Shown: positions 3,806-64,000 of the stretch, piece by piece | How positions within the stretch are numbered: position 1 is the first letter of the stretch | Layout: each line of letters begins with the position of its first letter | Assembly: GCA_964507055.1 (NCBI GenBank) | Contig: CAZDOJ010000001.1 | Location: forward strand, 1,170,050 to 1,234,049 | Length of the DNA stretch: 64,000 nt | Reading direction: 5' to 3' | Source of the DNA: an uncultured Gammaproteobacteria bacterium | Lineage (GTDB): Bacteria; Patescibacteriota; Microgenomatia; Levybacterales; UBA12049 | Translations under genes and position numbers: made by a program | The notes under the pieces: model-generated | What the model saw: the letters and a program-made list of their open reading frames with translations, nothing else | What the model was told of the DNA's origin: nothing | Databases searched by the model: none

Positions 3806-3825
3806 TCCCTTGTTATAATGACTTT

Positions 3826-40601: not shown

Positions 40602-40623
40602 AGAAACAGTATACCAGGAGCAA

Positions 40624-46534: not shown

Positions 46535-46598
46535 CTCTACGAGTAAATTATTAGTTCTCTAATTTCTTTTAATAAAATTATTGTATAATTATTTATGT

Positions 46599-47579: not shown

Positions 47580-47583
47580 GCTT

Positions 47584-48564
47584 ATGAAAATGTTCTCATT
47601 TATTATCTTAGCTCTGATTATTGGATTTGTAGGTGGGTATTTTATAAATAAATTATCTTCACAAAGTCTACCTATTCAAAGAGAAGACTGTGAATCTAAA
47701 TATGAGTTTATTAATAGTAGGATTGGTTGCCAACAGAATATTATAGATAAAAGAGAGTATACAGAATTTACTTCGGATTTGGAAACTTATATAGCTCAAG
47801 AAAAGGATAAAGGACATGTTTTCCACGTATCCGTTTACTTTCGTGATCTTATAGCTGGGCCAACATTTGGTATTAATTCAGGCGAAAAATTTGTACCTGC
47901 AAGTCTTTTGAAACTACCAATGATTATGACATATCTAAGTCTGTCTGAACAAACACCTGATATTCTAACTCAGAAAATAGTTTATAACAATATAAGATTA
48001 AATGCTGAACAATCGACAAGTAACATTCCTCAACTAGAAAAAAATAAGGAATATTCTATAGATGATTTGATTTCTAGAACAATTATATATTCTGACAATA
48101 AGTCCGAAGCTCTATTACGAAATTATCTGTCGACTACATATCCTAAAGATAATTTGTTAATTCAAACAATGACGGATCTTGGCTTAGTCGATCCAAGAGA
48201 TCCAATTGAAAATACTCTTACAGTCAAAGCATATGGAACTTTGTTCAGGCAATTATATAACAGTAGTTATCTTTCTCCAGCGATGTCTGAGAAGGCTTTA
48301 AAATTATTGGCGAAAAGTAAGTTCAAAAATGGAATATCTGGTGGGTTACCGAAAGATATAAAAGCAGCACACAAATTTGGTGAACGTGAGGAAGTAAATC
48401 AAAATGAAAAACAGCTTCATGATTGTGGAATTGTCTACTATCCTAATAATCCATACCTTCTTTGTGTAATGACACGTGGTGATGATATGCAAGAGCTCGA
48501 ATCTGTAATCAAAACGATATCAGAAAAAGTATATAAAGAAGTTGACTCCAGAAGAATACAATAA
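47584..48564 (+). CDS. Class A beta-lactamase-related serine hydrolase, membrane-anchored, paralog 2 (tandem duplicate)
   Basis: Same motifs (FVPASLLKLP, YSDNKSEALL, HKFGERE, LHDCGIVYYPNNPYLLCVMTRG). About 45% identity to the upstream paralog. Start could be 47569 (11-nt overlap), 47584 or 47590. Confidence 0.7.
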   Translation: MKMFSFIILALIIGFVGGYFINKLSSQSLPIQREDCESKYEFINSRIGCQQNIIDKREYTEFTSDLETYIAQEKDKGHVFHVSVYFRDLIAGPTFGINSGEKFVPASLLKLPMIMTYLSLSEQTPDILTQKIVYNNIRLNAEQSTSNIPQLEKNKEYSIDDLISRTIIYSDNKSEALLRNYLSTTYPKDNLLIQTMTDLGLVDPRDPIENTLTVKAYGTLFRQLYNSSYLSPAMSEKALKLLAKSKFKNGISGGLPKDIKAAHKFGEREEVNQNEKQLHDCGIVYYPNNPYLLCVMTRGDDMQELESVIKTISEKVYKEVDSRRIQ

Positions 48565-48682: not shown

Positions 48683-51600
48683 TTATTCTAATGGTGTTGC
48701 TGCGGATAATTCTTGTGGTTTTTCTGTACCGATCTGCATAATCATTTCAGTTGTTGAGAATGCTACTCCAACTGGAACCTCTTTGACCGCATCAACTGGT
48801 GCTACATCTGTTAGGGCTCCTGCAACTCCTAAGAAGTATTGCTTACCAGCTTCTAAGTTATTCAATACATTTGCTTTCCCACCGATGATGATGGTAACTT
48901 TCTCACCAGCCAATGCATCACCAGCAGCGATACCCACTACTGTTGTCTTTGCTTCATCTGTCGCATCTGCGATCATGACTTCTTCTGTATCTGAGATGTA
49001 AAGTGCATCTCCCTTTGTGATGTCTTCACCAGCTGTTGCTGATATAGTGATCGCTCCAGCGAGATCGATATTGCCGCCAACTTTGATGTTTTCTTTGGTT
49101 TCAACATTCTTTGCGACGATATTGCCTTTGGTAATCATTGTTCCGTTCTTGTCGATAACCATTGCTCCGTTGAAGATGTCGAGTAAGTTAGCAAGTGGTG
49201 ACTTCTGCAAGAACAAGATACCATCAGTTGGTTCTTCACCATTTTCGATTGGTGTACCGAAGACACTGATTTCATTTTCTGTGACAGAGAGTGTGCCGCC
49301 GACATTGATTCTGTCATCAACTGTGAGGACGCCAGCAACATTCGTATCTTCAAGTGTTGTCTTACCAGTTACCATTACATCACCTGAGATTGTTGTGTCA
49401 CCGAGGTATGATTTTCCAAATGACTTGAATGTATCCTGGATTGTTGCAGTGTATGCAGTGAATTCACCACTAACAGTTGCAGTTGAGAAGAATCCATGAT
49501 CAGTAGGGGATGCAGAATCCGATGCAATCAAGAGATCAGGTGATGTGAGATCTTCAGCTGATGGAGTAGGTTCTGCACTTTCACTTGCAGTTGGCGTAGC
49601 AGATGGTGAACCGACGCCACTTGTTGGAGTAGGGGTCGCTGATACATTGAGACTTGCGATGAGGTCATCAATTCTCTGACTCAAACTTGCAAGATCAGCT
49701 GAATTTGAAGCATTGTTGATTGCTTCAAGTTGTGCATTTAAGTTAGCGAGAACTGCATCTGTTGAAGCAACTCTGTCTCCAAGTGTTGCAGCATCGCTTG
49801 CTGCTTTTTCTGCGAGATCTTGTGCTGCTGCAAGTGCTGCTGCCTTTGCTGCTTCTTGTGACTCAAGGTTAGTGAGCCGTGTATCAAGTTGATTTGTCTT
49901 CTCTTCAAGACTGATTGCACTTGCTTGGAGTGATCCGATCGCAGTTGTCTTATTTGTGAGACTGTTGTTAACTGCGAGGAATGCATCAGCCAATGAACCG
50001 TTAACAACCTGACCGTCGATTTGCATATTTGATGGGAGGACAACTTCACCTGTTGTGATTTGTGTATCTTCATCAGTAAGGATAGCCAATTGGTTACTTG
50101 GATCAGCAAAGGTGACGTTAACAAATGTCATGACCTTGCCAACACCTGTGCCAGTGAAGTCTTCAAGTGCTTTACCGATAACTTGTCCTGGCTTGGTTGC
50201 TTTCATCGCGATACCAGCAACTGATGAAGAAGTGAGGTAATCGCCCTTTTTAATCTGTCCATTTTCTGTACTCACCTTGACTGGGACACGTCCAGCGAGA
50301 GCAACTGGAACTGCCTTGCCACCACTGATCATTTGTTCATTTTGTGATAGTCTAAAGCCTGGTTTTTCGCTGTAAACACCAATTATTGTAGTATCATATG
50401 TACCCTCTGATTTCTTGACGTTTTCAGCAACATCTTTGTCGATAGAGAGGATGTCACCAGCTTGCAGTGAATTGTCTTGTGTACCATAGTCTTCAGCCAA
50501 ATCATAGTTGCCGCCATTTGTTGTAAGTGTTCCGGACAATGTCGCGTTTCCAGTACTGTCGATAGAGAAGAGTTCTTGATTCGCAGCATTCTTCCACATG
50601 AATTTATTTGCATCCATACCTGTGTAGTCAGCAGCTAATTTACTAACCACATTACCTGTAATTCCTTCGATTGTTCCTGAGAGCAAGTCGAGGAGAGGAG
50701 TCCGAATTGTACCTGATGTTGTTAATGTTCCATTACCATCAATTGTTAATTCACTATTGTTACCGAATGCAGCTGCACTTGCAGTTAGATCTCCAAGGAT
50801 ATCGAAGTTCGCGTTGTGAGTCCAATCAGACAATCCATCATATGCTGCTTCCCCTGCATTTGGATTAGCATATCCAACATTCGCAAATGCCATAATCTTA
50901 CCCACAGACGGGTTCCAATTATTTGGATTAGAATGGTATTCCGCTAATTCTCCTGCATGGATTGAAGTTCTTTCGTTTTCTTCAAATAGAACATTTTCAG
51001 AAACTCGTACAGATCCATCATAATCTTCTAGAGCTTTACCGATAACTCGACCCCCTTTAGTTGCTTTCATAGCAACACCAGGAATTGAAGAACTGGTAAG
51101 GTAATCACCAATCTGAATAGGACCATTTTCTGTCGAGACTTTAAGCGGTACACGTCCTGCCAATCCTACCGGTTGTCTATTTGGAGATTTTACATTGTAA
51201 CCAATGATACCGTCAGCAATTGGGTTTGTTGAAACGATACCAATCATGTTGTCATCGTAAGTTCCATTAGATGCTGAAACCATGTAGTTTCCACCAGTTG
51301 ATGAGACGATGTCACCAGGTTCTACTGTACCATCAGTGTCATAGAATTCAGCTAAGTCAGCTTGGCCAGAAGTAGAACAGTCTCCAATTACAGCTTCGTT
51401 AAGTGCAACTCCGTTACCTGTACCGCCACCAGTTTGACATAGACGCTGTGTTTTAGCTCCTGATGCTGCATCAATTCTTACTTGTCCCTCAAAGTCATGT
51501 GTGCCAGTTCCGGTGACTTCAAGGTTTTCAGCAATTTCAATAACAGTATCAGTAGGGGAACTTATAACAGGTCTTGTCCCATCAAGATCAAAAGCAAGAT

Positions 51601-54600
51601 CAGTATTATCAGTTCCACCAGCACCTTGGAATTCAATACTACCGTTGGTGTTGTTATCAATTGTTTCACCATTCTGAAGTACAATATCGTTTGTAATATC
51701 TGTTGTTGCAATGTTAATACCATTGGTTATTGATCCTGCGAACCCGCCTGATACACCCAAGATTCTGATTGCACTTGTAACAGCTGCCGACTGGTTCTCA
51801 GAGTTTACGAGACAGAGGAGACATTCAACACCATCTGCATTTGTTGTACCAGTTGCAGCATTGACGATTTCAAATCCTCGAAGATTTGAATCACCATCAT
51901 TTTGTGTGAGTACCAATCGTGAACCATACAATGTGTCACTTGAAGAACCACCCTGTGCAGTGTAATCGAGTGAAAGACCGATATTGTTACCAGTAGATGA
52001 ATCAACATCAAGATCAAAGACACCAGTTGAAAGTGAATTGAGTGTACTGTCATTTGATGCAGCATCGATGAAGATTCTTTGTCCTGCTGCTTGGGTAAAT
52101 GTTGTTCCACCAGCTTCAGTTAGTGTTAAGAATGAAGTACCATTTCTGTTAACGATGAAGTCTCCAGTAGCTCCACTGACACCAAGGTTAACATTGATGT
52201 TGGAAGCACTTGATGGTTGGAGTGTGATATTACCAGTCCCACTACCAACGATTGTTGTACCAATTTCAGACTTCAACCAGAGATCACCATTGGATAGGGC
52301 AGAGAGTGATGATTGAGATCCACCGCCAGTTGATCCGAAGAGTATCTGACCATTTGTTGTGCCATTCAATCCAATTGTCAGTATGGATGAAGTAGCTGAT
52401 GCATCTGCAAATGAGAAGAGGGTATTTGTCCCGTCTGTTAATCCGAGTGTTCCACCATTTGCGAATGAGATCAATGGGTTACTGAAATTAAAGTTGATGT
52501 TACCAGTTGATTGAACTTGGAATAAGTCACCATTTCCAACAGTCAATGGAGCAGCTGGTGTCGCATCTCCGAATCCTACGTTTCCTTGGAAGTATGCAGT
52601 GCCATTTGAGTTCAACTTAACGCCGTATGAAGTATTAAGTGTTGGAACTGCTGCACCAGTCAATGCTGTACCAGTATCAATGATTGAGTTGGTTGTTGTT
52701 GTTAAGTATCCAGTTTGGTTATTTGATGATGTTCCTCGATATACTCGGTATGATGTCGCACCTGCAACTGCTGTCCAGTTGATTGTAACTCTCTGGCCAA
52801 GAGTAACTGCTTGTGCATTTTCAGGACTTGTAGTTGTTTCACCACCAGCTGCATCAAGTGCTGTAACTTTGTAGTAATAGGTGCCCGTTGCGAGTGTTCC
52901 ACCACCAGCTGCAGTACCCATAGATAATGCTCCAGGAGCTGACATGTTAAGACCCATGTTATTCCCAGCTCCAAGAACGAATTTCTCTTGTGGAGTTGCT
53001 GTACCAAATCCTACATTTCCACCAGCAACGATCAAGCCGTAGTTCGTAGCACTTGCTCCACTTGCATCGAAGTATCCTGCGATGTTTGTCGCACTATTTG
53101 TTGTTGTATTAACGATCGATCGGACACCATATGATGTGTGGTTAGCATTTACATTGGTTCCAGATCGTGCGATATCAAGCATGTATGTTGTACCACTTGC
53201 TCCACCATTGGTTGCTGAATTTGTGATAGCAACTGCTGGAGTAGAAACATTTGTTGTACTGATTTGAAGAACATCACTTGCTGTTGCATTGGAGATAACA
53301 CCAGTTGAGAAGTTCTTGTTGAAGTAACCGAATTGGACCGTACCAGAGTTAGCTGTTGATGTGAATCCACCTGCACAAGCCAAGTTACCATTACTGTTGG
53401 TAACTGTACAACCTGTTGATGCTGAAGTTCCAGCGATGTTAACATCTCCAGTTTGTGTATTACTTTGGAGGTTAAGTGCTCCTGAACCATTTGCATTTAC
53501 ACTGACTGCTGCGTTTGTTGTGGTAGCAGCGATCACTGGTGCTGATCCGGAAAGATTAATTGTATTTGTACCCATTGTGAGGACGCCACTACCAAATGTT
53601 ACTGGTCGGTTCGTTGTGGTATTGATTCCAAGTGTTGCTGATCCACCAGTTGCATCGATGATTGGAGCAGTACCAGTTAGGTTGATTGCGTTGGATGCGA
53701 GTGCTGTTGTCGCACCTGATACTGTCAAACCACCAGCTACTGTTGTCGTACTTCCTGATGCACCGATTGCGAGTGATGAAGCACCGCCACCGATATTCAA
53801 AGTTGATGTCTGAACTGTGTTAAACAAGTTAACAGTTGATCCTGATGTTGCTGAGATATCGCCTCCGTTAACGATCAAATCACCAGTCATTGTTGTCGCA
53901 TTTGTTCCGAGGAATGAATATGTTGGGTTCGTTGAGCCGTTACCAAATGAGATATTTTCTGAGCTGTTTGTGGTGTTGATGTTAATGTAATTATTTGCAC
54001 CTTCTTGAACATCAAGAGCATCAGTATTGTTATCAACTAAGTTTGCAGTAATATCACTTCCTGCACCATTTGCTGTAAGTGAAACTGTTGTTCCGGAAAG
54101 AGCAATTGCATCGCCGCCATCACCGATGTTTGCTGCACCATTTGCAGTGAGTGTACCAGCAACTGTTAATCCATTATTAACTGTTGTTGTTCCAGTAGCA
54201 GCTCCGAGTGAAACAGTTGTTGCAGCACCACCGATGTTCAATGTTGTTGCGACTGTGTTGAAGACATTTGCAGTTGATTTCGCAGCGATCAATGTTGATT
54301 GCGTAGAACCATCAATTGTCAAACCATTTGATGCTGTAACTGCACCGGTCAATGTAGAGATGCCATCAACTGTTAATGTACCATTTGTTGAGATGTTTCC
54401 AGTGTTTGCGATTGTAGCACCAGTTGATCCGTAACCGCCGCCGACATTTACTGTATCGAATCCTGCGGTTGCATTTGTTGCAGCGATTGATGTTGCGTTA
54501 GGGAAGTTAATTGTTGTTCCTCGGATGTTGCCTGTTGCATTGGTTGCACCCAAAGTGTATGTCGTTGCAGCTCCACCAATATTGAGTGTTGTTGCTCCAG

Positions 54601-57600
54601 TATTGAAGAGGGAAGCTGTGCCAGCAGTTGTTGTAAGATCTCCACCATTCAATGCTGCATCTCCAGCACTAGTGATATCTCCACTTGCACCAGCAACTGA
54701 GAAGTTAGTACCTGATATATCATTTGCTCCGAATGAAAGTGCTGTTCCGATATCTGCATTACTAACATCAAGAGCTGTTGTGACATTGCCACTTGGAGTT
54801 CCAGCAATTCTCAATGCGATTGGTAATGCTCGATTAGTGTCTTTGTTGTCTATCAAAACGAGTTGTGTAGGATCTGCAGTTCCAGCACCATCAGCTCGTG
54901 AGATTTCGACGCCACCTGTTGAACCTGTTGCTGTTGTAACAGTGAATTTAGAATCAGCTGTTGTGTCAGCAAGTGTGAATGCGATGTCTCTGTTGTTTGT
55001 TGTAGTGATTGCATTGCCATTGTCATATGCACTTTGGAGACTTTGTGATGCACCGTCACATTTAACAACTTGATTTGAGCCATTGACACAAACACCAGTT
55101 CCAGCAGCAGTTGTCAAACCATTCAATGTTATGAATGAATCAGCGTCTGATGTAATTGTTACGCCATTTGTTCCATTTGGTGAGAAGTTAGATTGACCAT
55201 TTGCTGTAAATGTCTGACCTGATGCAACTGTCAAACCACTGTTCACAGTTGTTGTTCCACCATTTGCTCCGAGTGCGATTGTTGTAGCAGCACCACCGAT
55301 GTTGAGTGTAGTAGCTCCGGAATTAACCAAGTTGAATGTACCAGCAGTTGTTGTAAGATCTCCACCATTAACAGCAACGTCACCAGTTGCAGTAACATTA
55401 CCAGTTAATGTTGAAGCACCATCAACTGTTAATGTACCGTTTGCTTGGATATTTCCAGCGTTACTGACTGAAACGCCAGTTGACCCGTAACCACCGCCGA
55501 TTGAGAGGGAATCAGCATTGAATGCAGCGGTCAACGCAGAGATTGTTGTTGCATTGTTGAAGTTGATTGTTGTTCCTCGGAGGTTACCAGTCGCATTAGT
55601 TGCACCGATTGTGTATGCGGTTGCAGCACCACCCATGTTAAGTGTTAATGCATTTGTATTGAATACTGTTGCTGTTCCTGTACCTGATGTAGTGATGTCA
55701 CTTCCATTGACAGCTAAGTCACCTGATGTAGTGATGTTACCAGTTGATCCAACGATCCCGAAGTTGGTTGCAGATACGTTACTTGCTCCAAGTGCGATAC
55801 CTGTTGTGATACTTGCATCACTGACGTCGATACCTGTTGTTACGCCGCCGCCACCTGAGGATGTTACTTTCAAACCAGCTGGAATTGCTCTATTTGTGTC
55901 AGCATTGTCGATCAAGATAAGTTGTGCAGGATCGTTTGTACCAGCTCCATTTGCTCTTGAGAATGTAGAGAATCCAGTTGATCCATCAGCTGTTGTTACT
56001 GCAAAGTTAGAATCAGTTGCAGTATCAGCAAGTGTGAATCCGATATTTCGAGCATCAGTTGTTGTTATGGTATTTCCATTGTTGTATGCAGTTTGCAGGT
56101 TAAGAGATGCTGCATTACATGTACCAACATTGTTTGATCCATCGAGACAGAGTGTAGTACCAGCAACTGACTGAAGTCCTGTTAATACCAAAGTTGAATC
56201 AGCATCTGTTGCAAATGTAATGTCGTTTGTACTATTTGGTGAGAATGAAACTGCACCAGCTGTTGTGAGTGTACTGTTGTTACCGACAGTCAAAGCATTT
56301 CGTACAGTTGTTGTACCAGTTGTTGCACCGAGAGCAACTGTTGTTGCAGCACCACCAATGTTAAGTGTGGTAGCGGTTGTATTGAATAAGTTACCTGTTG
56401 TCTTTGATGAAACCAAGTCTGATGTTGATGCACCATTAATTGTTACACCATTCGATGCTGTAACTGCACCAGTCAATGTTGATGCTCCATCAACTGTGAG
56501 TGCACCATTTGCTTGAACATCTCCAGCACTACTTACTGAAACGCCAGTTGATCCGTAACCGCCACCGATAGCTGTTGAACTGATGTTAAGAGCAGCTGAA
56601 TTTGCTGTGATAGTTGTCGCGTTAGGGAAGTTGATTGTTGTACCTCGGATATTCTGTGTTGCAGTTGTTGCACCTGTTGTCAGTGTTGTTGCTGCACTTC
56701 CCATTGTTACTGTTGTTGCATTTGTATCGAAGATTGAACCGGTTGTTGCAGTTGTTGAAAGTGTTCCACCATTGACTGCGACATTGCCAGCTGTTGTGAC
56801 ATTACCGTTTGCACCAGAGATAGAGAAGTTACTTGCAGATACATCGTTTGCTCCGAGTGAAAGTGCAGTGACGATACTTGCGTCTGAAAGATCAAGTGCA
56901 GTTGTAATTCCGCCACCACCTGTTGATGTAATAGCCAATCCAGTTGGAAGTGGTCGGTTAGCATCTGCATTATCGATAAGAACTAATTGATTTGGATCAG
57001 ATGTTCCAGCACCATTTGCTCGTGAGAAGACTGTTCCACCAGTTGATCCATCAGCTGTTGTGATAGTGAAGTTAGAATCAGTAGCAGTGTCAGCAAGTGT
57101 GAATCCAATGTTTCTATTGTTTGTTGATGTGATGGTATTTCCATTATCATATGCAGCTTGCAAACTTGCGTTTGCTGTCAAATCACATTTAACAACTTGG
57201 TTGGAACCATTTACACAAAGTGTTGGTTGTGCACCTGATGCTGTTGTCAAACCACTGACAGTCAAGAATGAATCAGAATCAGTTGCGATTGTGACACCAT
57301 TTGTACTGTTAGGTGAGAATGAAACTGCACCACTTGTTGTCAAAGCACTGTTGTTTGCAACAGTCAAAGCATTTCGGATCGTTGTTGTACCAGTTGTTGC
57401 ACCGAGTGAAACAGTTGTAGCAGCGTTACCGATGTTAAGTGTCGTAGCACCAGTATTGAAGATATTTCCAGTTGCAAATGTTGTTGTAATATCTCCACCA
57501 TTTACTGCGATATCACCTGATGATGTGATGTTTCCAGTTAAGTTAGAAGTACCATCAACTGTTAAGTTACCATTTGCTTGGATGGTGCCAGCATTACTGA

Positions 57601-60600
57601 CTGAAACTCCTGTTGAACCATAACCGCCACCGATTGTAGCAGCATCGATTGTTACTGTCGCACCACTTGCATTCAATGCTGTTGCATTTGGAAGTGCGAT
57701 TGTTTGGTTATTGATTGTTGCTGTACCACTTGCACCGCCGATGTTCAATGTTGTTGCTGCTCCAGCGAAGTTCACTGTTGTTGCAGTTGCATCAACTAAG
57801 TTGAATGTTGTTTCATCAGTTGAGATTGTTCCACCATTTGCAGCGATTGATCCGTTAGCTGAAAGATTACCATTTGAACCAGTGAGTGAGAAGTTGGTTG
57901 CAGTGATGTCATTTGCACCAAGTGAAAGTGCATTACCGATTTCAGCATCTGAGAGATCAAGTGCTGTAGTGATACCACCAGCTGCTGCTTGTACTTTAAT
58001 ACCTGCAGCAACTGCTCTGTTTGTATCCAAGTTATCAACCAAGATCAATTGGTTTGGATCAGCTGTTCCACTACCATTTGCTCGAGTGAACGATGAGAAT
58101 CCAGTTGATCCATCAGCTGTAGTGATAGTGAAGTTAGCATCAGTTGTTGTATCAGCGAGTGTGAATCCGATATCTCGAGCATCTGTTGTAGCGATTGTGT
58201 TGCCAGCATTGTATGCAGCTTGCAAACTGAATGACGCCGCTGAACATGTACCGACATTACTTGATCCATCAACACAAAGTGTTGTTCCAGTAACTGATTG
58301 CAAACCAGTTAATACCAAAGTTGAGTCAGCATCAGTGTTGATTGTAATATCACTTGTGCTTGCAGGTGTAAGTGAAACTGCACCAGTTGTAGTGAGTGAA
58401 CTGTTGTTAGCAATTGAAAGATTATTGTTCACAGTTGTTGTGCCAGTTGCTGCACCGAGTGAAAGAGTTGTAGCAGCACCACCGACATTCAATGTTGTTG
58501 CAGTTGTATTAAAGAGGGAAGCTGTTGTTTGATTTGTAGTAACGTCGCCGCCGTTAACAGCAACGTCTGCTGCAGCTGTTACATTTCCAGTCAAAGTTGA
58601 AACACCATCAACTGTTAATGTACCGTTTGCTTGGATATTACCAGCGTTAGAGATAGTAGCACCAGTTGAACCGTAACCGCCACCGATTGCTACTGAATCA
58701 AATGTCGCTGCTGCACCAGCTGCTGCAAATGTTGTAGCGTTAGGGAAGTTGATTGTTGTACCTCGGATATTTCCTGTTGCTGCTGTTCCACCAATTGTGT
58801 ATGTTGTCGCAGCACCACCGATATTCAATGTCGTAGCAGTTGTGTTAAAGAGGGAAGCAGTTGTCGCTGATGTCGTAACATCGCCACCATTCACAGCAAC
58901 ATCACCAGTTGTTGTGATGTTTCCAGTGCTACCTGCGATAGAGAAGTTGCTTGCAGTGACATCATTTGCTCCGAGTGAAAGTGCGTTACCGATTGTTGCA
59001 TCTGAAAGATCAAGTGCAGTTGTTACTCCAGCTCCACCAGCGGAACCGATCTTCAATCCAACTGGGAGGATTCGGTCTGCATCCAAGTTGTCGATCAAGA
59101 CTAATTGTGTTGGATCATTTGTACCAGCACCGTTTGCTCGTGCGAATACTGAGTAACTGGTTGAGTCATCAGCAGTTGTTACTGAGAAGTTCGAATCAGT
59201 TGCAGTATTTGCAAGTGTGAAGTCGATATTTCTGTTGTTTGTTGTTGTGATAGTGTTGCCATTGGTATATGCAGCTTGCAAACCTTGTGACGCAGAGTTA
59301 CATGTCCCAACATTATTGCTACCATCGATACAAAGTGCAGTACCTGTAAGTGATTGCAAACCAGTCAAGATCAATGTTGAATCGGCATCAGTTGCGAAAG
59401 TAATGTCATTTGTACTGTTTGGTGAGAATGAAACAGCACCCGCACTTGTTAATGTTCTGTTATTTCCGATTGTTAAATTGTTGTTCACAGTTGTTGTACC
59501 GGTTGTTGCACCAAGAGAGAGGGTAGTAGCAGCGCCGCCAACATTCAATGTAGTGACACCAGAGTTAAGAAGATTAAATGTTGTTGCACTTGATGTTAGG
59601 TCCCCACCATTGATAGCGACATCAGCTGTCGCAGTAACATTACCAGTCAAAGCAGAAGTACCATCAATTGTTAAGTTACCATTCGCTTGGATATCTCCAG
59701 CATTTGAAAGTGTTGTTCCAGTCGTTCCATAACCGCCACCGATAGCAATAGTATCAAATGTCGCAGCAGCTTGTGGAGCAGTGAAGGATGTAGCGTTAGC
59801 GAAGTTGATAGTCGCATTTCGGATGTTTGCTACACCAGTTGTTGCACCTAAGTTAACAGTTGTTGCAGCGCTACCGATATTCAATGTTGTTGCATTGGTA
59901 TTGAACAAATTACCGGTTGTTTGTGATGTAGCAATAGTACCTGAATTAGCATTGATATTTCCTGAGAATGTACTTGCACCAGTTCCTAAGAATGAATATG
60001 TTGGGTTAGTGGTTACATTACCGAATGAAAGATTCTCAGAACCATTTGTTGTGTTCAAGTTAATGTAGTTATTTGAACCTTCCTGGATATCAAGAGCGTT
60101 TGCATTGTTATCAACTACAGTTGCAGTTAAGTTATTGTTAAGTGTTGTTGTCCCAGTTCCTGCACCGAGAGCAACAGTTGTAGCAACTCCACCGATATTT
60201 AGTGTTGTAGCATTGGTATTAAGAAGATTGAATGTTGTTTGTGATGTTGTAAGATCTCCGCCATTTACAGCAACATCACTTGCAGCGGTAACATTTCCAG
60301 TTAATATTGATGTGCTATCAACTGTCAAAGTTCCATTGGTTGAAACATTCCCGGCATTACTTACTGTCAAACCAGTAGAGCCATAACCTCCGCCGACGTT
60401 TAATGTATCGATATTTGCAGTTGCTCCTGCTGCGTTAATTGCAGTTGCATTTGGAAGAGAGAGGGTAGCGTTGTTGATCGTTGCTGTTCCACTATTTGCA
60501 CCGATGGTAACATTGGTAGCAGTGCCGCCAGCATTCAATGTTGTGACTCCAGAGTTAAGAAGATTGAATGTTGTTGCAGAAGATGTAAGATCTCCACCAT

Positions 60601-63600
60601 TGATAGCGACATCAGCTGTCGCAGTAACATTACCAGTCAAAGCAGAAGTACCATCAATTGTTAAGTTACCATTTGCTTGAACATTTCCTGTACTGCCAAG
60701 TGTTACACCAGTTGAACCGTATCCACCGCCAGCATTTACGACATCGAATCCTGCAGTTGCTGAATTTCCGTCGATTGTTGTTGCGTTCGGGAAGTTGATT
60801 GTCGTACCTCGGATATTTCCAGTCGCATTGGTTGCACCCAAAGTGTATGTCGTAGCCGCACCACCAACATTCAATGTTGTAACGCCGGTGTTAAGAAGAT
60901 TGAATGTACCAGCACTTGATGTTAAGTCTCCACCATTTACAGCTACATCAGCTGAAGTTGTGATGTTGCCAGTTGCGGTGATTGTTCCTGAAGTGTTGAT
61001 GTTGCCGTTAGAACCAGTGATAGAGAAGTTGGTAGCGGTAACATCATTCGCACCAAGTGAGAGAGCATTGACTATCTCAGCATCTGAAAGATCAAGAGCA
61101 TTTGTAATTCCACCAGCTGCAGCTTGGATCTTAATACCAGCTGGTAATGCTTCGTTTGTATCCAAGTTCTCGATCAATTGTAATTGTGCTGGTGGAGTAG
61201 TATTTGTACCGTTAGCCAAACCGAAGTATGAATAGCCAGTTGAACCAGCAGCAGTTGTCACTGTGAAGTTGGAATCAGTTGAAGTATTAGCTAAGTTGAA
61301 TGCGATGTCTCGTGCATCTGATGTCGTGATTGTGTTACCACCAGCATATGCATTTTGGAGACTGAGTGTTGCATTTGCACACTGAACAACATTGTTTCCA
61401 CCGTCGAGACAGAGTGGGGTACCAGTTGTTGTACCCAAACCATTCAAGATGATTGTTGAATCTGTATCAGTTGTAAATGTGATGTCATTGGTACTGTCTG
61501 GAGCAAATGTAGAAGCACCATTTGCGTCGAATGATTGACCAGTTGCGACTGTTGCACCGCCATTGAATGTTGCGAGTCCTGTTGCAGTTGTTACTCCATC
61601 AATAAGAAGGTCATTGTTGATATTTGTTGTGCCAGTTGCTGCACCCAAGTTAAGTGCAGTTGCTGCACCACCGATATTGATTGTAGTTGCTGTTGTATTG
61701 AGTAAGTTAAATGTACTTGCACCAGTTGTTAAGTCACCACCATTGATAGCGACATCACCAGTTGCTGTTACGTTACCAGTCAATGCGGAAGTGCCATCGA
61801 TAGTCACATTACCGTTTGCTTGGATGTTGCCAGCGTTAGAGATTGAAACGCCAGTTGAGCCGTAACCGCCGCCAACATTTAATGTATCAAATCCAGCAGT
61901 TGCTGAAGTTCCATCGATAGTTGTTGCATTGTTAAAGTTGATTGTCGTACCTCGGATATTTCCAGTCGCATTGGTTGCACCCAAAGTGTATGTCGTAGCC
62001 GCACCGCCAACATTCAATGTCGTAGCATTGCTGTTGAACAAGTTAGCTGTTGTTTGGTTGGTAGCGAGTGTACCTGAATTAGCATTTATGTTCCCAGTTG
62101 CAGTGATAGTTCCACTTGTTGTGATGTTGCCGTTAGAACCAGTGATCGAGAAGTTGGTGGCAGCTACATCATTAGCACCAAGTGAGAGTGCATTAACGAT
62201 TTCAGCATCTGAAAGATCCAATGCATTAGTGATACCACCAGCAGCTGATTGAACTTTTATGCCAGCAGCAACTGCTCGATCAGTGTCTTGATTGTCAACC
62301 AAGATCAGTTGTGCTGGGTCTGAAGTGCCTGCACCATTTGCTCGAGCGAAGATACTTGTACCAGTTGAACCATCAGCTGTTGTTACTGTGAAGTTAGAAT
62401 CAGTTGTAGTGTTCGTCAATGTGAAGGCGATGTCTTTTGCGTCTGTTGTGTCGATTGTATTTCCACCAACATATGCATTTTGGAGACTGAGTGTTGCATT
62501 TGCACATTGGACAACATTGTTACTGCCATCGAGACAAAGTGAAGTGCCAGCTGCTGTACCAAGCCCAGTCAAGACAAATGTTGAGTCAGCATCAGTTGCA
62601 AAAGTAATGTCATTTGTACCATTTGGTGTAAATGTACTTGTACCATTTGCAGTCAATGTTTGACCTGATGGGATAGTTGCACCACCATTGAATGTTGCTA
62701 CGCCAGTTGCTGTCAACGCATTATTAACTGTAGTTGTTCCAGATGATGCACCAAGTGAAAGGGTAGTAGCAGCATTGCCAATATTCAATGTTGTAACTCC
62801 AGAGTTAAGAAGATTGAATGTTGTTGCAGAAGATGTAAGATCTCCACCGTTGACTGCAACGTCGGCAGCAGCAGTTACATTACCAGTCAATGTTGAGATG
62901 CCATCAACTGTCAAAGTTCCATTTGCTTGGATATTTCCAGAGTTACTGATCGTTGCACCAGTAGAACCATAACCACCGCCGATAGCAACTGAGTCAAAAG
63001 TAGCAGCAGCTTGTGGAGCAGTGAATGATGTAGCGTTAGCGAAGTTGATAGTCGCATTTCGGATGTTAGCAATACCAGTTGTTGCACCCAAGTTAACAGT
63101 AGTGGCAGCACTACCAACATTGAGTGTCGTAGCAGTTGTATTGAATAAGTTACCAGTAGTTTGTGATGTAGCAATTGTTCCAGAGTTAGCATTGATGTTC
63201 CCACTGAATGTACTTGCACCGGTTCCGAGGAATGAATATGTCGGATTTGTTGTCGTGTTACCAAATGTGATGTTTTCTGCACCGTCAGTTGTGTTTACAT
63301 TGATGTAGTTGTTACTGCCTTGCTGAATATCAAGAGCATTTGCATTGTTGTCGACCATATTAACAGTCAAGTTATTGTGTAATGTTGTTGTTCCGGTTCC
63401 GGCACCAAGTTCAATTGTTGTAGCATCGCCACCGATATTTAATGTTGTAGCATTGGTATCAAGTAAGTTAAATGTAGAAGCAGATGTCGTCAAGTCACCA
63501 CCATTGATAGCGACATCTCCAGTTGCAGTGACATCACCAGTAAGTGTTGAAGTTCCATCAATTGTGAGTGAACCATTCGCTGAGATATCACCAGCACTAC

Positions 63601-64000
63601 TGATAGTAGTACCAGTTGATCCATAGCCATTACCAACATTCAAAGCGTCGATGTTTGCAGTTGCTCCTGCTGCATTGATTGCAGTAGCATTTGGAAGTGA
63701 TAGGGTAGCGTTATTGATTGTTGTTGTGCCTGTACTCGCACCAAGAACGAGTGAAGTAGCAGCACCGCCTAGATTCACTGTCGTAGCATTCGCATTAAAT
63801 ACATTTGCAGTACCAGCAGTAGTTGTAAGTGATCCACCGTTCACTGCTACGTTTCCAGCAGTAGTAATGTTTCCATTAGAACCAGTGATAGAGAAGTTTG
63901 TTGCAGCAACATCATTAGCACCGAGAGATAATGCATTGACGATCTCTGCATCGGAAAGATCAAGAGCGTTAGTGATACCACCAGCAGCAGCTTGAATCTT
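48683..64000 (-). CDS. Giant (>5,100 aa) repeat-rich surface/fibre-like protein, partial (N-terminus beyond window end)
   Basis: Continuous minus-strand ORF from the window edge to a stop at 48683, with no in-frame stop in the last 156 nt. About 3,600 aa of Thr/Ala/Gly/Asn-rich nested tandem repeats; motifs GGGYGSTG, NGGDLT, TTLN[IV]GGAATT, C.DGSNNV..C. These are followed by an FN3-like module (...INWTAVAGATSYRVYR...), two ~120-aa related modules (...ALAGRVP[LV]KVSTENG.I..GDYLTSSS..G[VI]AMKATK.G.VIGKALED...), a coiled coil (~49700-49900), a P/T/S linker and a C-terminal ~300-aa domain. Confidence 0.85.
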   Translation of the reverse strand, partial: KIQAAAGGITNALDLSDAEIVNALSLGANDVAATNFSITGSNGNITTAGNVAVNGGSLTTTAGTANVFNANATTVNLGGAATSLVLGASTGTTTINNATLSLPNATAINAAGATANIDALNVGNGYGSTGTTISSAGDISANGSLTIDGTSTLTGDVTATGDVAINGGDLTTSASTFNLLDTNATTLNIGGDATTIELGAGTGTTTLHNNLTVNMVDNNANALDIQQGSNNYINVNTTDGAENITFGNTTTNPTYSFLGTGASTFSGNINANSGTIATSQTTGNLFNTTATTLNVGSAATTVNLGATTGIANIRNATINFANATSFTAPQAAATFDSVAIGGGYGSTGATISNSGNIQANGTLTVDGISTLTGNVTAAADVAVNGGDLTSSATTFNLLNSGVTTLNIGNAATTLSLGASSGTTTVNNALTATGVATFNGGATIPSGQTLTANGTSTFTPNGTNDITFATDADSTFVLTGLGTAAGTSLCLDGSNNVVQCANATLSLQNAYVGGNTIDTTDAKDIAFTLTNTTTDSNFTVTTADGSTGTSIFARANGAGTSDPAQLILVDNQDTDRAVAAGIKVQSAAGGITNALDLSDAEIVNALSLGANDVAATNFSITGSNGNITTSGTITATGNINANSGTLATNQTTANLFNSNATTLNVGGAATTYTLGATNATGNIRGTTINFNNATTIDGTSATAGFDTLNVGGGYGSTGVSISNAGNIQANGNVTIDGTSALTGNVTATGDVAINGGDLTTGASTFNLLNTTATTINIGGAATALNLGAATGTTNINNDLLIDGVTTATGLATFNGGATVATGQSFDANGASTFAPDSTNDITFTTDTDSTIILNGLGTTTGTPLCLDGGNNVVQCANATLSLQNAYAGGNTITTSDARDIAFNLANTSTDSNFTVTTAAGSTGYSYFGLANGTNTTPPAQLQLIENLDTNEALPAGIKIQAAAGGITNALDLSDAEIVNALSLGANDVTATNFSITGSNGNINTSGTITATGNITTSADVAVNGGDLTSSAGTFNLLNTGVTTLNVGGAATTYTLGATNATGNIRGTTINFPNATTIDGNSATAGFDVVNAGGGYGSTGVTLGSTGNVQANGNLTIDGTSALTGNVTATADVAINGGDLTSSATTFNLLNSGVTTLNAGGTATNVTIGANSGTATINNATLSLPNATAINAAGATANIDTLNVGGGYGSTGLTVSNAGNVSTNGTLTVDSTSILTGNVTAASDVAVNGGDLTTSQTTFNLLNTNATTLNIGGVATTVALGAGTGTTTLNNNLTATVVDNNANALDIQEGSNNYINLNTTNGSENLSFGNVTTNPTYSFLGTGASTFSGNINANSGTIATSQTTGNLFNTNATTLNIGSAATTVNLGATTGVANIRNATINFANATSFTAPQAAATFDTIAIGGGYGTTGTTLSNAGDIQANGNLTIDGTSALTGNVTATADVAINGGDLTSSATTFNLLNSGVTTLNVGGAATTLSLGATTGTTTVNNNLTIGNNRTLTSAGAVSFSPNSTNDITFATDADSTLILTGLQSLTGTALCIDGSNNVGTCNSASQGLQAAYTNGNTITTTNNRNIDFTLANTATDSNFSVTTADDSTSYSVFARANGAGTNDPTQLVLIDNLDADRILPVGLKIGSAGGAGVTTALDLSDATIGNALSLGANDVTASNFSIAGSTGNITTTGDVAVNGGDVTTSATTASLFNTTATTLNIGGAATTYTIGGTAATGNIRGTTINFPNATTFAAAGAAATFDSVAIGGGYGSTGATISNAGNIQANGTLTVDGVSTLTGNVTAAADVAVNGGDVTTNQTTASLFNTTATTLNVGGAATTLSLGAATGTTTVNNNLSIANNSSLTTTGAVSLTPASTSDITINTDADSTLVLTGLQSVTGTTLCVDGSSNVGTCSAASFSLQAAYNAGNTIATTDARDIGFTLADTTTDANFTITTADGSTGFSSFTRANGSGTADPNQLILVDNLDTNRAVAAGIKVQAAAGGITTALDLSDAEIGNALSLGANDITATNFSLTGSNGNLSANGSIAANGGTISTDETTFNLVDATATTVNFAGAATTLNIGGASGTATINNQTIALPNATALNASGATVTIDAATIGGGYGSTGVSVSNAGTIQANGNLTVDGTSNLTGNITSSGDIAVNGGDITTTFATGNIFNTGATTLNIGNAATTVSLGATTGTTTIRNALTVANNSALTTSGAVSFSPNSTNGVTIATDSDSFLTVSGLTTASGAQPTLCVNGSNQVVKCDLTANASLQAAYDNGNTITSTNNRNIGFTLADTATDSNFTITTADGSTGGTVFSRANGAGTSDPNQLVLIDNADANRPLPTGLAITSTGGGGITTALDLSDASIVTALSLGANDVSASNFSISGANGNVTTAGNVAVNGGTLSTTATTGSIFDTNATTVTMGSAATTLTTGATTATQNIRGTTINFPNATTITANSAALNISSTAIGGGYGSTGVSVSSAGDVQANGALTVDGASTLTGAVTASNGVTINGASTSDLVSSKTTGNLFNTTATTLNIGGAATTVALGATTGTTTVRNALTVGNNSTLTTAGAVSFSPNSTNDITFATDADSTLVLTGLQSVAGTTLCLDGSNNVGTCNAASLNLQTAYNNGNTITTTDARNIGFTLADTATDSNFAVTTADGSTGFSTFSRANGAGTNDPAQLILIDNADTNRAIPAGLKVTSSGGGGVTTGIDVSDASITTGIALGASNVSATNFGIVGSTGNITTSGDLAVNGSDITTSGTGTATVFNTNALTLNMGGAATAYTIGATNATGNLRGTTINFNNATTISALTAAFNADSLSIGGGYGSTGVSVSNAGNIQANGTLTVDGASTLTGNVTATGDVAVNGGDLTTTAGTFNLVNSGATTLNIGGAATTIALGANGGTTTVNSGLTVASGQTFTANGQSNFSPNGTNGVTITSDADSFITLNGLTTAAGTGVCVNGSNQVVKCDGASQSLQSAYDNGNAITTTNNRDIAFTLADTTADSKFTVTTATGSTGGVEISRADGAGTADPTQLVLIDNKDTNRALPIALRIAGTPSGNVTTALDVSNADIGTALSFGANDISGTNFSVAGASGDITSAGDAALNGGDLTTTAGTASLFNTGATTLNIGGAATTYTLGATNATGNIRGTTINFPNATSIAATNATAGFDTVNVGGGYGSTGATIANTGNISTNGTLTVDGISTLTGAVTASNGLTIDGSTQSTLIAAKSTANVFNTVATTLNIGGAATTVSLGAATGTTTVNNGLTVAGTLTANGAANIGDGGDAIALSGTTVSLTANGAGSDITANLVDNNTDALDVQEGANNYININTTNSSENISFGNGSTNPTYSFLGTNATTMTGDLIVNGGDISATSGSTVNLFNTVQTSTLNIGGGASSLAIGASGSTTTVAGGLTVSGATTALASNAINLTGTAPIIDATGGSATLGINTTTNRPVTFGSGVLTMGTNTINLSGSAPVIAATTTNAAVSVNANGSGALNLQSNTQTGDVNIAGTSASTGCTVTNSNGNLACAGGFTSTANSGTVQFGYFNKNFSTGVISNATASDVLQISTTNVSTPAVAITNSATNGGASGTTYMLDIARSGTNVNANHTSYGVRSIVNTTTNSATNIAGYFDASGASATNYGLIVAGGNVGFGTATPQEKFVLGAGNNMGLNMSAPGALSMGTAAGGGTLATGTYYYKVTALDAAGGETTTSPENAQAVTLGQRVTINWTAVAGATSYRVYRGTSSNNQTGYLTTTTNSIIDTGTALTGAAVPTLNTSYGVKLNSNGTAYFQGNVGFGDATPAAPLTVGNGDLFQVQSTGNINFNFSNPLISFANGGTLGLTDGTNTLFSFADASATSSILTIGLNGTTNGQILFGSTGGGSQSSLSALSNGDLWLKSEIGTTIVGSGTGNITLQPSSASNINVNLGVSGATGDFIVNRNGTSFLTLTEAGGTTFTQAAGQRIFIDAASNDSTLNSLSTGVFDLDVDSSTGNNIGLSLDYTAQGGSSSDTLYGSRLVLTQNDGDSNLRGFEIVNAATGTTNADGVECLLCLVNSENQSAAVTSAIRILGVSGGFAGSITNGINIATTDITNDIVLQNGETIDNNTNGSIEFQGAGGTDNTDLAFDLDGTRPVISSPTDTVIEIAENLEVTGTGTHDFEGQVRIDAASGAKTQRLCQTGGGTGNGVALNEAVIGDCSTSGQADLAEFYDTDGTVEPGDIVSSTGGNYMVSASNGTYDDNMIGIVSTNPIADGIIGYNVKSPNRQPVGLAGRVPLKVSTENGPIQIGDYLTSSSIPGVAMKATKGGRVIGKALEDYDGSVRVSENVLFEENERTSIHAGELAEYHSNPNNWNPSVGKIMAFANVGYANPNAGEAAYDGLSDWTHNANFDILGDLTASAAAFGNNSELTIDGNGTLTTSGTIRTPLLDLLSGTIEGITGNVVSKLAADYTGMDANKFMWKNAANQELFSIDSTGNATLSGTLTTNGGNYDLAEDYGTQDNSLQAGDILSIDKDVAENVKKSEGTYDTTIIGVYSEKPGFRLSQNEQMISGGKAVPVALAGRVPVKVSTENGQIKKGDYLTSSSVAGIAMKATKPGQVIGKALEDFTGTGVGKVMTFVNVTFADPSNQLAILTDEDTQITTGEVVLPSNMQIDGQVVNGSLADAFLAVNNSLTNKTTAIGSLQASAISLEEKTNQLDTRLTNLESQEAAKAAALAAAQDLAEKAASDAATLGDRVASTDAVLANLNAQLEAINNASNSADLASLSQRIDDLIASLNVSATPTPTSGVGSPSATPTASESAEPTPSAEDLTSPDLLIASDSASPTDHGFFSTATVSGEFTAYTATIQDTFKSFGKSYLGDTTISGDVMVTGKTTLEDTNVAGVLTVDDRINVGGTLSVTENEISVFGTPIENGEEPTDGILFLQKSPLANLLDIFNGAMVIDKNGTMITKGNIVAKNVETKENIKVGGNIDLAGAITISATAGEDITKGDALYISDTEEVMIADATDEAKTTVVGIAAGDALAGEKVTIIIGGKANVLNNLEAGKQYFLGVAGALTDVAPVDAVKEVPVGVAFSTTEMIMQIGTEKPQELSAATPLE
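52750..64000 (-). repeat. Nested coding tandem repeats inside the giant gene: basic unit ~1.3 kb (~430 aa), plus near-identical higher-order copies 3,240 bp apart
   Basis: Antisense ORF peptides at 59781/63021 and at 60105/63345 are ~80-85% identical with an exactly 3,240-bp offset. The GGGYGSTG motif recurs about every 430 aa. Confidence 0.8.

Follow-up and report, generated by a model that had tools for sequence, protein, structure and literature searches.

A probable giant extracellular fibre with gp12-type chaperone modules, encoded in the Levybacteria lineage of Patescibacteria

The window (the whole 64,000-nucleotide stretch of DNA analysed here) ends in a single minus-strand open reading frame that we favour reading as the C-terminal portion, at least 5,105 residues long, of a giant extracellular fibre from Levybacteria-lineage Patescibacteria (CPR), resembling a phage tail fibre or spike in how it is built and assembled. 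Translation of the window gives 5,105 sense codons and a single terminal stop (48683..64000, minus strand, as are all features below; stop codon at 48683–48685), thus confirming the frame of more than 5,100 codons that an earlier note on this DNA had described over the last 15.3 kb. The frame reaches base 64000, i.e., the window edge, without closing, and its 5' end and the N-terminus of the protein lie beyond the window. Since the other five frames over the same 15.3 kb contain 63–457 stops each, an open frame of this length is not due to chance. The encoded protein is made up of a repeat stalk, a variable head, two tandem beta-tulip modules, a long helix, a disordered linker, and a terminal beta domain.

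Apart from type IV pili, little is known of how ultrasmall CPR bacteria locate their partner cells and stay attached to them. Recognition of a gp12-type chaperone gives two exact predicted cleavage sites, and a swappable head, as the likely determinant of specificity, could help to predict and compare host range from genomes. It would also mean that cells have reused a mechanism of phage virion assembly for surface structures that exceed phi29 gp12 (854 aa) more than fivefold in size.

Chaperone modules and the region downstream

The earlier note had pointed to a duplicated module of ~120 aa and, finding no motif by which to assign the protein, had left its fold open. The two copies are located at aa 4201–4339 (module 1; 50984..51400; module HMM E 2e-50) and aa 4484–4637 (module 2; 50090..50551), separated by a spacer (aa 4340–4483; 50552..50983) that includes a short fibre-like segment, and module 2 is the best-conserved part of the C-terminal region. 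Judged by profile and motif, the duplicated module is an intramolecular-chaperone, self-cleaving-type beta-tulip domain of the phi29 gp12 type (MEROPS G2), and the question of its fold can thus be answered. A profile of 41 module sequences, searched against the PDB, matched the cleaved fragment of phi29 gp12 (3gqh; E 8.9e-6), full-length gp12 (6qz9; E 1.6e-5), the E695Q “pre-mature” gp12 (3suc; E 1.6e-4), and domain D4 of Dpo31 (E 2.1e-4), with gp12 and Dpo31 D4 being the only significant matches at the sequence level. The predicted beta-tulip fold of the modules can be superposed on the C-terminal domain of gp12. Pfam Peptidase_G2 (PF11962) recognizes the homologous module of a relative (P0046; 37.1 bits, cut-off 25); as aa 3601–5105 of the window protein have no direct match to it at E<0.1, membership of G2 rests on the family profile and the predicted fold. 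We regard it as highly likely that this is a phage-fibre-like protein with genuine G2-type chaperone modules.

Both modules carry the motif D-L-A-E, which aligns with D692-F-A-E695 of gp12, namely the first residues of the cleaved fragment 3gqh. The predicted self-cleavage motifs are D4215-L-A-E4218 in module 1 (51347..51358) and D4500-L-A-E4503 in module 2 (50492..50503), where D4215/E4218 and D4500/E4503 fall on gp12 D692/E695, and the predicted cuts would lie between A4214 and D4215 and between Y4499 and D4500. The stretch NYDLAEDY of module 2 is identical in three orthologues (L002, L003, and L004), and the first module of L004 is without the D..E motif. Within the family, the pattern D-x-A-E-x-[YF] is strongly conserved, at about 95%: among 127 modules, D is found in 121, E in 122, and all four positions, A and Y/F included, in 121–122 each. 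In gp12, E695 reportedly has a role in cleavage, and the E695Q variant is said to represent the uncleaved form; the sequence of 3suc reads DFAQYF, with Q in place of E695. Cleavage of the gp12 C-terminal domain takes place after folding (PMC3357383), Dpo31 D4 begins at Asp664 and is invariably found cleaved off (PMC13317679), and beta-tulip proteins are trimers (PMC7602432). With these proteins as analogues, the balance tips slightly toward self-cleavage actually happening in the window protein.

Neither module is the last domain, with 766 and 468 residues following modules 1 and 2, respectively. The coiled coil, the Pro/Thr/Ser linker, and the separate C-terminal domain that had been noted earlier all reappeared in an AF2 model of the C-terminus, a check that the earlier note had proposed. 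The coiled coil is a single 116-residue helix (aa 4670–4785; 49646..49993; model residues 191–306), within which weak coiled-coil-type Pfam matches are also found; matches to SMC and PspA coiled coils were set aside as compositional. The Pro/Thr/Ser-rich linker is predicted to be disordered (aa 4786–4840; 49481..49645; pLDDT <40, model residues 307–361). Beta-rich parts cover aa 4864–5090, consisting of short, solenoid- or fibre-like strands that are conserved in the family (aa 4864–4959; 49124..49411; pLDDT 60–70) and a C-terminal beta domain (aa 4974–5090; 48731..49081; pLDDT about 90). The latter is probably a third, degenerate beta-tulip copy. The module HMM reaches it with an iE of 0.0019 in the window protein and 0.0092 in L002, and it shows a weak match to Pfam Phage_cement_2 (E 1e-3); an hhalign comparison of the domain with the module is non-significant (probability 1.5%). 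Its D-L-A-E is replaced by D-L-A-G (Gly for Glu), and since this presumed third copy has lost the Glu, the self-cleavage motif appears to be unnecessary for the beta-tulip fold.

Since both predicted self-cleavage sites precede the coiled coil, the linker, and the terminal domain, these three parts may be a removable assembly device and not an adhesive tip. Alternatively, the beta-tulip modules could be permanent, non-cleaving trimer nodes, with the entire C-terminal region acting as a distal adhesive tip. gp12 and Dpo31 both end in the chaperone, whereas here both modules are internal, and discarding the roughly 470 conserved residues past module 2 would be wasteful. Moreover, the closest subfamily keeps the terminal knob, capsid decoration and cement proteins match the modules structurally as well as gp12 does, and there are beta-tulips, those of the gp8.5 head fibre and of capsid decoration proteins, that remain in place as permanent trimer nodes. 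On the other hand, the residues for cleavage and catalysis in gp12 and Dpo31 are matched exactly by the D-x-A-E-x-[YF] motif in the alignment, and it is these two proteins that the profile singles out in the PDB. In addition, the module is the very last domain in two complete relatives (L038 and L073), as it is in gp12, and the presumed third copy speaks for a motif that is dispensable for the fold. Permanent nodes thus seem to us rather unlikely.

Repeat stalk and variable head

The stalk (aa 1–3479; 53564..64000) was described through repeat anchors and motif counts. Both these counts and the composition of the protein (T 17%, A 13%, G 13%, N 11%) agree with the nested, Thr/Ala/Gly/Asn-rich repeats with GGGYG, NGGDLT, and Cys-pair motifs reported before. 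With LDLSDA-type anchors at aa 13, 594, 969, 1663, 2014, 2369, 2724, and 3077, the stalk comprises at least eight macro-units of ~355 aa (351–375), two of them expanded to 581 and 694 aa. Each macro-unit opens with a fibrous A-B-A part and closes with a node domain of ~170 aa, which holds a disulfide-type Cys-x9-Cys pair. Element A is a ~54-aa “VNGGDLTT...LNIGGAATT” sub-repeat (22 copies, spaced about 112 aa apart), and element B is the GGGYGSTG element (GGGYG-type motif, 11 copies). An inserted “VDNNxxALDIQxGxNNYINxNT” element is present in three copies, and the protein contains seven C..G...V..C pairs.

The stalk matches PHROG 4527 “short tail fiber” (E 2.7e-33) and has no match in Pfam, NCBIfam, or the PDB, where a stalk profile gave chance matches only (cadherin-6 at E 0.03, and RACK1). 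The same sub-repeats are found in “tail fiber domain-containing” proteins bearing S74 chaperones. A representative macro-unit (aa 2396–2750; 55751..56815) was modelled, following the earlier suggestion to run AlphaFold on one repeat. This did yield a model but no fold match: the AF2 monomer is, as modelled, an extended chain with almost no intrachain secondary structure (mean pLDDT 73), which explains why Foldseek found no match in the PDB. A match to a well-characterised family, which the earlier note had named as grounds for revising its reading, was obtained for the C-terminal modules only, and no known fold could be matched to the head or to the stalk, which makes up about 70% of the protein.

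Directly upstream of the first chaperone module lies the head, which covers roughly 550–670 aa (aa ~3548–4214; 51359..53359). It contains a region with a “GNVGFGTATP” tail-fibre-type motif, an FN3-like module, and a beta-rich region with two Cys pairs. The FN3-like module (aa ~3685–3800, with WTAVAGATSYRVYR; 52601..52948), which had been picked out before, is homologous to modules of other proteins (P0122, P0129, and P0231) that match Pfam GH85_C/fn3, but it has no direct Pfam match itself. In the closest orthologue (L002), aa ~3549–4093 are swapped for an unrelated cassette of ~420 aa, which makes the head a putative specificity determinant and suggests that it sets binding specificity. Identity to another orthologue (L003) is lowest across aa 4118–4317, i.e., the C-terminal end of the head and module 1. 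On sequence grounds, the head is a likelier binding part than the C-terminal region downstream of it, and we give attachment to a host or partner through the head, a role assigned by analogy, an even chance of being correct.

The head might also be an enzyme, such as a tailspike-like depolymerase or a cell-wall hydrolase, which would turn the fibre into a predatory or parasitic weapon instead of a passive adhesin. Indeed, gp12-type chaperones usually come after enzymatic beta-helix domains (gp12, Dpo31; PMC13317679), and giant genes of ultrasmall bacteria have been tied to cell-wall degradation (bioRxiv 10.1101/2023.11.21.568195). Furthermore, the cassette of L002 weakly matches a ConA-like glycan-handling family (3keto-disac_hyd, E 3e-4). 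However, aa 3430–4215 contain no catalytic family according to Pfam, NCBIfam, the PDB, and a full HMMER scan, and yield just FN3-like and unnamed repeat modules. An enzymatic head is, in our view, improbable.

A chromosomal gene for a probable surface fibre, and the proposed assembly

Several observations point to the cell surface, and we hold with good confidence that the giant protein is extracellular and anchored at its N-terminus. All 20 of its Cys residues are in close pairs. Complete relatives begin with a signal peptide or TM anchor, or else with a cytoplasmic HTH domain followed by a single TM helix, and all eight that were examined have one or the other arrangement. In the search for the N-terminus, exact DNA comparison with genome and metagenome contig collections gave no match, the neighbouring genes led only to a 9.6-kb Logan contig (their proteins are also carried by a contig of 1,318,932 bp), an ENA relative (L082) was seen to run off its contig, and P0166 turned out to be a small separate gene. 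The neighbouring genes in the window all encode N-terminal hydrophobic anchors or signal peptides, in line with the secreted neighbours mentioned in the earlier note. Its reading of a surface fibre or adhesin from a small-genome (CPR-type) bacterium fits as well, the closest named relatives being Levyibacteriota/Patescibacteria. The sortase or S-layer motif that it had proposed looking for is absent: there is no LPx[TSA]G sorting signal anywhere in the window protein (C-terminus ...SAATPLE) and no Pfam match to SLH domains, and a sortase- or S-layer-anchored Gram-positive adhesin was thus rejected. A YadA-like trimeric autotransporter was discarded too, as the window protein has no Pfam matches to YadA head, stalk, or anchor domains and ends in a beta-tulip-like domain, not a membrane anchor.

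Every recognisable domain has structural relatives in phages (gp12 chaperone, cement proteins, PHROG tail fibre), homologues show weak K1-lyase_C and XM1 gp53 matches, and the module is also found in the jumbo phages Atu_ph07 and Phosso, so the gene could conceivably encode the tail fibre or spike of a prophage, tailocin, or huge phage and not a cellular surface structure. Yet the gene sits in ordinary chromosome among housekeeping and envelope genes: the window also encodes PGK, RuvB, DnaG, a P-type ATPase, and an aminoacyl-tRNA synthetase of class I, with no capsid, portal, terminase, or baseplate genes nearby, and the flanking genes recur in three cellular genomes. In the phage collection, those two jumbo phages were the only ones matched by the module, weakly, and the stalk unit matched none of the 50,697 phage records. 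The window protein, with its modules near the C-terminus, probably belongs to an unnamed Patescibacteria fibre family, defined by such modules together with an N-terminal signal anchor or HTH plus TM. This very widespread gene family is almost entirely unannotated; a protein search gave more than 1,000 members, and the Patescibacteria species representatives in GTDB hold at least 574 loci, many longer than 3,000 aa. The N-termini of its complete relatives are, moreover, unlike those of virion proteins. That this particular gene encodes a phage tail fibre or spike is therefore very improbable.

The giant gene is real and conserved; both an assembly artefact and a pseudogene can be dismissed. 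Syntenic, collinear orthologues are found in independent assemblies of three related genomes, namely OZ246394.1 (87% identity across aa 701–3548), Levyibacteriota MAG_784 (63% across aa 918–5094), and JTS-RE358, and L002, L003, and L004 are open for at least 4,190, 4,216, and 3,933 codons, respectively. Two observations could be cited for an assembly chimera in which repeats have collapsed, or for a pseudogene in decay: a short-read Logan contig breaks off within the gene, 765 nt from its 3' end, and a homologue is split into many short ORFs on one long-read ENA contig. Both readings are effectively refuted already by the open orthologues, by 15.3 kb without the stops or frameshifts that the earlier note had wished to see excluded, by 21 of the 80 best loci that run for 3,000 aa or more with no stop, and by repeat units that have diverged to 65–77% DNA identity (longest exact repeat 80 bp; one 50-bp repeat with a 24-bp period and no further array in Tandem Repeats Finder).

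For the assembly of the fibre, we infer the steps of export, trimerisation, cleavage, and head binding by analogy with gp12 and Dpo31. Three chains would be exported and held at the membrane by their N-terminal signal anchors, after which trimerisation would begin at the C-terminal beta-tulip modules and the coiled coil, fixing the register. Folding of the head and stalk into an intertwined trimer would come next. Each chain would then cut itself just before Asp4215 and/or Asp4500, freeing a chaperone-containing C-terminal piece of about 600–890 aa and leaving the head (aa ~3548–4214) as the distal tip of a fibre whose length we roughly estimate to be on the order of 100–200 nm. The head would finally bind a ligand on the host or partner cell.

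In many relatives, the same fibre starts with a MerR/HTH_17 domain on the cytoplasmic side, followed by a single TM helix. Quite tentatively, we suggest that Patescibacteria have domesticated the self-cleaving G2 chaperone of phages to build cell-length, membrane-anchored fibres for recognition with exchangeable heads, the HTH–TM relatives serving as contact sensors. If true, the latter could couple contact outside the cell directly to DNA binding, as fibre-tethered one-component sensors. In MYRF-type factors a phage chaperone domain serves trimerisation and cleavage, and the fibre sensor would loosely be their bacterial counterpart.

Comparison with known systems

When searched in three pieces against Pfam, NCBIfam, and the PDB, the whole protein gave nothing above threshold; a “UBA_RAD5A” match on the LDLSDAEIVNAL motif is compositional. 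Aureispira GhpA (5,898 aa, PDB 9flp), a giant surface filament for cell–cell capture, is a conceptual analogue only, since this grappling hook was rejected as a relative (module profile E 1.6, no match with the stalk profile). Large surface proteins of Absconditicoccaceae-type Patescibacteria (PMC13059738) and the products of Omnitrophota giant genes (bioRxiv 10.1101/2023.11.21.568195) are likewise surface-targeted and repeat-rich, with a proposed role in host contact. The source of the window is, like these carriers of giant genes, an ultrasmall bacterium that probably depends on a host. The domains reported for those giant proteins are FN3, cadherin-like, ConA, and integrin-type adhesion domains or cell-wall hydrolases, and the literature searched on Patescibacteria and Omnitrophota giant proteins describes no phage G2-type chaperone architecture.

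The “tail fiber domain-containing proteins” of bacteria and phages, which carry the endosialidase-type S74 chaperone, share the ~54-aa sub-repeats and “GNVGIGT..P” type motifs with the window protein. One of them (P0164; 620 aa, secreted) combines a signal peptide and the same stalk elements with an S74 chaperone. PF13884 (Peptidase_S74), present in this and other smaller stalk homologues (P0199, P0215, and P0229), has no match anywhere in the window protein, whose length is roughly tenfold greater and whose chaperone is of the G2 type, unrelated to S74. The beta-tulip proteins of capsid decoration and cement, as well as gp8.5, are small (about 110–280 aa), bind capsids, and are without the D-x-A-E motif; the module profile matches the gp8.5 head fibre non-significantly (E 0.19).

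The closest known systems, having the equivalent domain, are gp12 of the Bacillus phage phi29, its pre-neck appendage or tail spike (MEROPS G2, PF11962; 3gq7, 3gqh, 3suc), and domain D4 of Dpo31, the tail spike of a marine podovirus. gp12 combines one terminal chaperone with an enzymatic beta-helix in 854 aa, whereas the window protein is chromosomally encoded, exceeds 5,100 aa, and carries two tandem modules and probably a degenerate third one. It further differs from gp12 in its repeat stalk without a known fold and in the roughly 470 residues (coiled coil, linker, solenoid, and knob) that follow module 2.

The giant reading frame and its surroundings

The giant minus-strand gene at 48683-64000 had been described as an open reading frame (ORF) of more than 5,100 codons running off the window edge, and this holds: translation gives 5,105 sense codons and one terminal stop, with the frame unclosed at base 64000. 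Since 63-457 stops interrupt each of the remaining five frames over these 15.3 kb, we regard it as a genuine coding frame; its product is rich in Thr (17%), Ala (13%), Gly (13%), and Asn (11%). A locus scan using the C-terminal alignment as query and one genome per GTDB species yielded orthologous loci in a 1.61-Mb chromosome (L002, OZ246394.1; 91% identical), a Levyibacteriota MAG (L003; 62%), and another Patescibacteria MAG (L004; 55%). Their ORFs are open over the entire 10 kb upstream flank and extend off the locus (4,190, 4,216, and 3,933 open codons, respectively). The L002 protein is collinear with that of the window at 87% identity over aa 701-3548 and the L003 protein at 63% over aa 918-5094. 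Among the 80 best loci, 21 contain a stretch of 3,000 aa or more without a stop.

An assembly artefact was rejected on account of the diverged stalk units (pairwise identity 52-73% in protein, 65-77% in DNA), a longest exact DNA repeat of 80 bp, and the open orthologues in three other genomes. Tandem Repeats Finder reported a single 50-bp repeat (24-bp period) and no array of stalk units. A short-read contig with the same neighbours (L001, Logan SRR14271336_31922) stops 765 nt inside the gene's 3' end, in the non-repetitive C-terminal domain and outside the repeats. A close homologue of about 15 kb (L082, ENA ERZ25039513 contig_57579) is broken into more than 10 short called genes, which looks like frameshift errors of long-read assembly and not real decay; protein databases therefore contain many fragments of such genes.

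The window also encodes PGK, a class I aminoacyl-tRNA synthetase, RuvB, DnaG, a P-type ATPase, a DUF4012 protein, and one tRNA-Asn, and no phage morphogenesis genes were found among the genes of its 64 kb. As the giant gene has its nearest named relatives in Levyibacteriota and other Microgenomates/Patescibacteria, the titles "uncultured Gammaproteobacteria" or "Pseudomonadales" carried by many of the closest records (including L002) look like taxonomic mislabels.

The neighbours agree with the earlier note, which had placed the gene beside secreted proteins. Directly downstream lie two tandem Beta-lactamase2-family genes (332 and 331 aa; 46581-48564, plus strand), both with an N-terminal hydrophobic anchor; the pair also adjoins the orthologues in L002 and L003, and the next two downstream genes are present in L003 in the same order. 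A secreted 911-aa protein with four CarboxypepD_reg domains (43799-46534, plus strand) and a 1,015-aa protein (40624-43671, minus strand) belong, together with the giant gene, to a conserved envelope-protein block. The latter has an N-terminal transmembrane (TM) helix, no confident Pfam domain, and a syntenic 1,024-aa ORF in L003. Its end is overlapped for about 190 nt by a mechanically called Peptidase_S51 ORF (39960-40817, minus strand); given a shorter Logan call of 213 aa, translation of this ORF probably begins downstream of the listed TTG. A SET-domain gene (E 2.5e-19; 35966-36775, minus strand) adjoins a 158-aa ORF with an IS1595-type transposase zinc ribbon (36899-37375, minus strand).

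Homologues of tail-spike chaperones

The duplicated module recognized earlier indeed occurs twice, at aa 4201-4339 (module 1) and 4484-4637 (module 2). With the C-terminal 956 aa as query, a family search retrieved 1,063 proteins, nearly all of them from Patescibacteria; among the 120 listed, 70 carry one module, 49 carry two, and 1 carries three. A profile (A1) built from 41 diverse modules was run against PDB sequences, where its significant matches are phage tail-spike chaperones only: the cleaved C-terminal fragment of gp12, the phi29 tail spike with a self-cleaving chaperone (3gqh, E 8.9e-6), full gp12 (E 1.6e-5), its "pre-mature" mutant (3suc, E 1.6e-4), and domain D4 of the marine tail spike Dpo31 (E 2.1e-4). 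The modules' D-L-A-E aligns exactly onto D-F-A-E, the opening residues of the released gp12 fragment, where the uncleaved 3suc has D-F-A-Q. In gp12, cleavage of the C-terminal domain follows folding (PMC3357383), and Dpo31 D4, starting at Asp664, was found cleaved off in every case (PMC13317679). The motif is conserved across 127 module instances (D, A, and Y/F in 121 each, E in 122). Judged by sequence, both modules are thereby established as homologues of gp12-type chaperones with a conserved cleavage motif. The Pfam Peptidase_G2 model has no match in the window protein; it does match the module of the homologue P0046. In L004, the first module (orthologue aa 2997-3132) reads SHYARTDE in place of D-x-A-E and may be inactive; the second retains NYDLAEDY.

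Trimeric beta-tulip capsid cement/decoration proteins and the head-fibre base gp8.5 reach structural scores similar to gp12, in agreement with their published kinship to 3SUC (PMC7602432). Self-cleavage would be predicted ahead of D4215 and/or D4500. The main rival holds that the modules are permanent trimer nodes, with the coiled coil and knob as the tip; their internal, non-terminal position and the analogy to gp8.5 favour it, but the near-invariant D..E motif and sequence matches exclusively to self-cleaving chaperones speak against it.

Beyond module 2, AF2 bears out the proposed coiled coil, Pro/Thr/Ser linker, and distinct terminal part. In the model, aa 4670-4785 form a helix of 116 residues, the linker (aa 4786-4840) is disordered, aa 4864-4959 contain short beta strands, and about aa 4984-5089 make up a well-predicted C-terminal beta domain. 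This last domain is probably a third, degenerate beta-tulip that lost the catalytic Glu. It opens with GGNIDLAGAIT...GDALYIS...VVGIAA, parallel to GGNYDLAEDY...GDILSI...IIGVYS in module 2; weak matches to it come from the module HMM (iE 0.0019 in the window protein, 0.0092 in L002) and from Phage_cement_2 in Pfam, and hhalign against the module was not significant.

Stalk repeats and a variable head

The nested repeats proposed for the stalk, including the Cys pairs, were all recovered. The motif [LI]D[LV]S[DN]A (aa 13, 594, 969, 1663, 2014, 2369, 2724, and 3077) delimits macro-units of 351-375 aa and two expanded units of 581 and 694 aa. A regular unit consists of an A-B-A fibrous part followed by a node domain of about 170 aa, which contains a C-x9-C pair (7 copies). 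The A element (about 54 aa; VNGGDLTT...FNLFNT.ATTLNIGGAATT..LGA..GTTT) has 22 copies and the B element, containing GGGYGSTG, 11. The expanded stalk units owe their length to three copies of an inserted element of about 60 aa (VDNN..ALDIQ.G.NNYIN.NTT...ENI.FGN.TTNPTYSFLG) at aa 225-285, 1305-1365, and 3310-3365 (roughly window 63146-63328, 59906-60088, and 53906-54073). In P0164 and P0166, which are small secreted homologues, this element is likewise present, after the signal peptide. All 20 cysteines of the giant protein lie in close pairs, as expected for an extracellular protein.

Between stalk and module 1 lies a head of about 670 aa (aa 3548-4214) with GNVGFGTATP motifs of tail-fibre type. 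The anticipated FN3-like module is present (aa ~3685-3800) and related to GH85_C/fn3-scoring modules of other proteins; the beta-rich region of the head matched no named family. In L002, an unrelated cassette of about 420 aa, weakly matching the ConA-like family 3keto-disac_hyd (E 3e-4), replaces window aa ~3549-4093. The more distant L003 keeps the window head type at about 50% identity; its identity is lowest (36-47%) at aa 4118-4317, the C-terminal end of the head plus module 1, and highest (up to 84%) in the stalk and module 2. Domain order and a variable head are direct observations. Phage receptor-binding proteins exchange distal-domain cassettes on a conserved shaft, a pattern that the head swap would fit by analogy.

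Proposed assembly, topology, and relatives

We propose that trimerization would nucleate from the C-terminal beta-tulips and coiled coil, upon which head and stalk would fold into an intertwined trimer. AF2 models the monomer of one stalk unit as an extended chain that lacks intrachain secondary structure, which is consistent with such folding. Self-cleavage could then leave the head exposed as the distal tip of the fibre, where it may bind a ligand on a partner cell.

Topology was read from complete relatives (2,398-3,440 aa), whose N-termini all fall into two classes: a signal peptide or signal anchor (L073, L038, L053, L063, and L057; also P0290, P0346, and P0361) or a single TM helix preceded by one or two MerR/HTH_17 domains on the cytoplasmic side (L024, L025, and L066; also P0280, P0305, P0036, and others). 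An N-in, C-out orientation is therefore expected. The 620-aa stalk homologue P0164 combines a classical signal peptide with a C-terminal S74 chaperone, which is unrelated to the G2-type.

Bacteria commonly encode "tail fiber domain-containing" proteins with S74 chaperones. Some Patescibacteria have been described as carrying very large surface proteins (PMC13059738), and Omnitrophota also possess giant genes (bioRxiv 10.1101/2023.11.21.568195). Neither G2-type modules in giant CPR proteins, nor their tandem arrangement, nor HTH-TM-fibre variants turned up in the literature searched, which is weak evidence of novelty as literature coverage was partial.

Members of this HTH type are numerous (785-3,440 aa; including P0050 and P0118) and consist of one or two MerR/HTH_17 domains, a TM helix, an extracellular fibre, and a G2-type module. 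Coupling a surface fibre to a DNA-binding domain in this way is unusual. They resemble ToxR-like one-component sensors, and also MYRF, in which a DNA-binding domain is joined to a phage chaperone domain.
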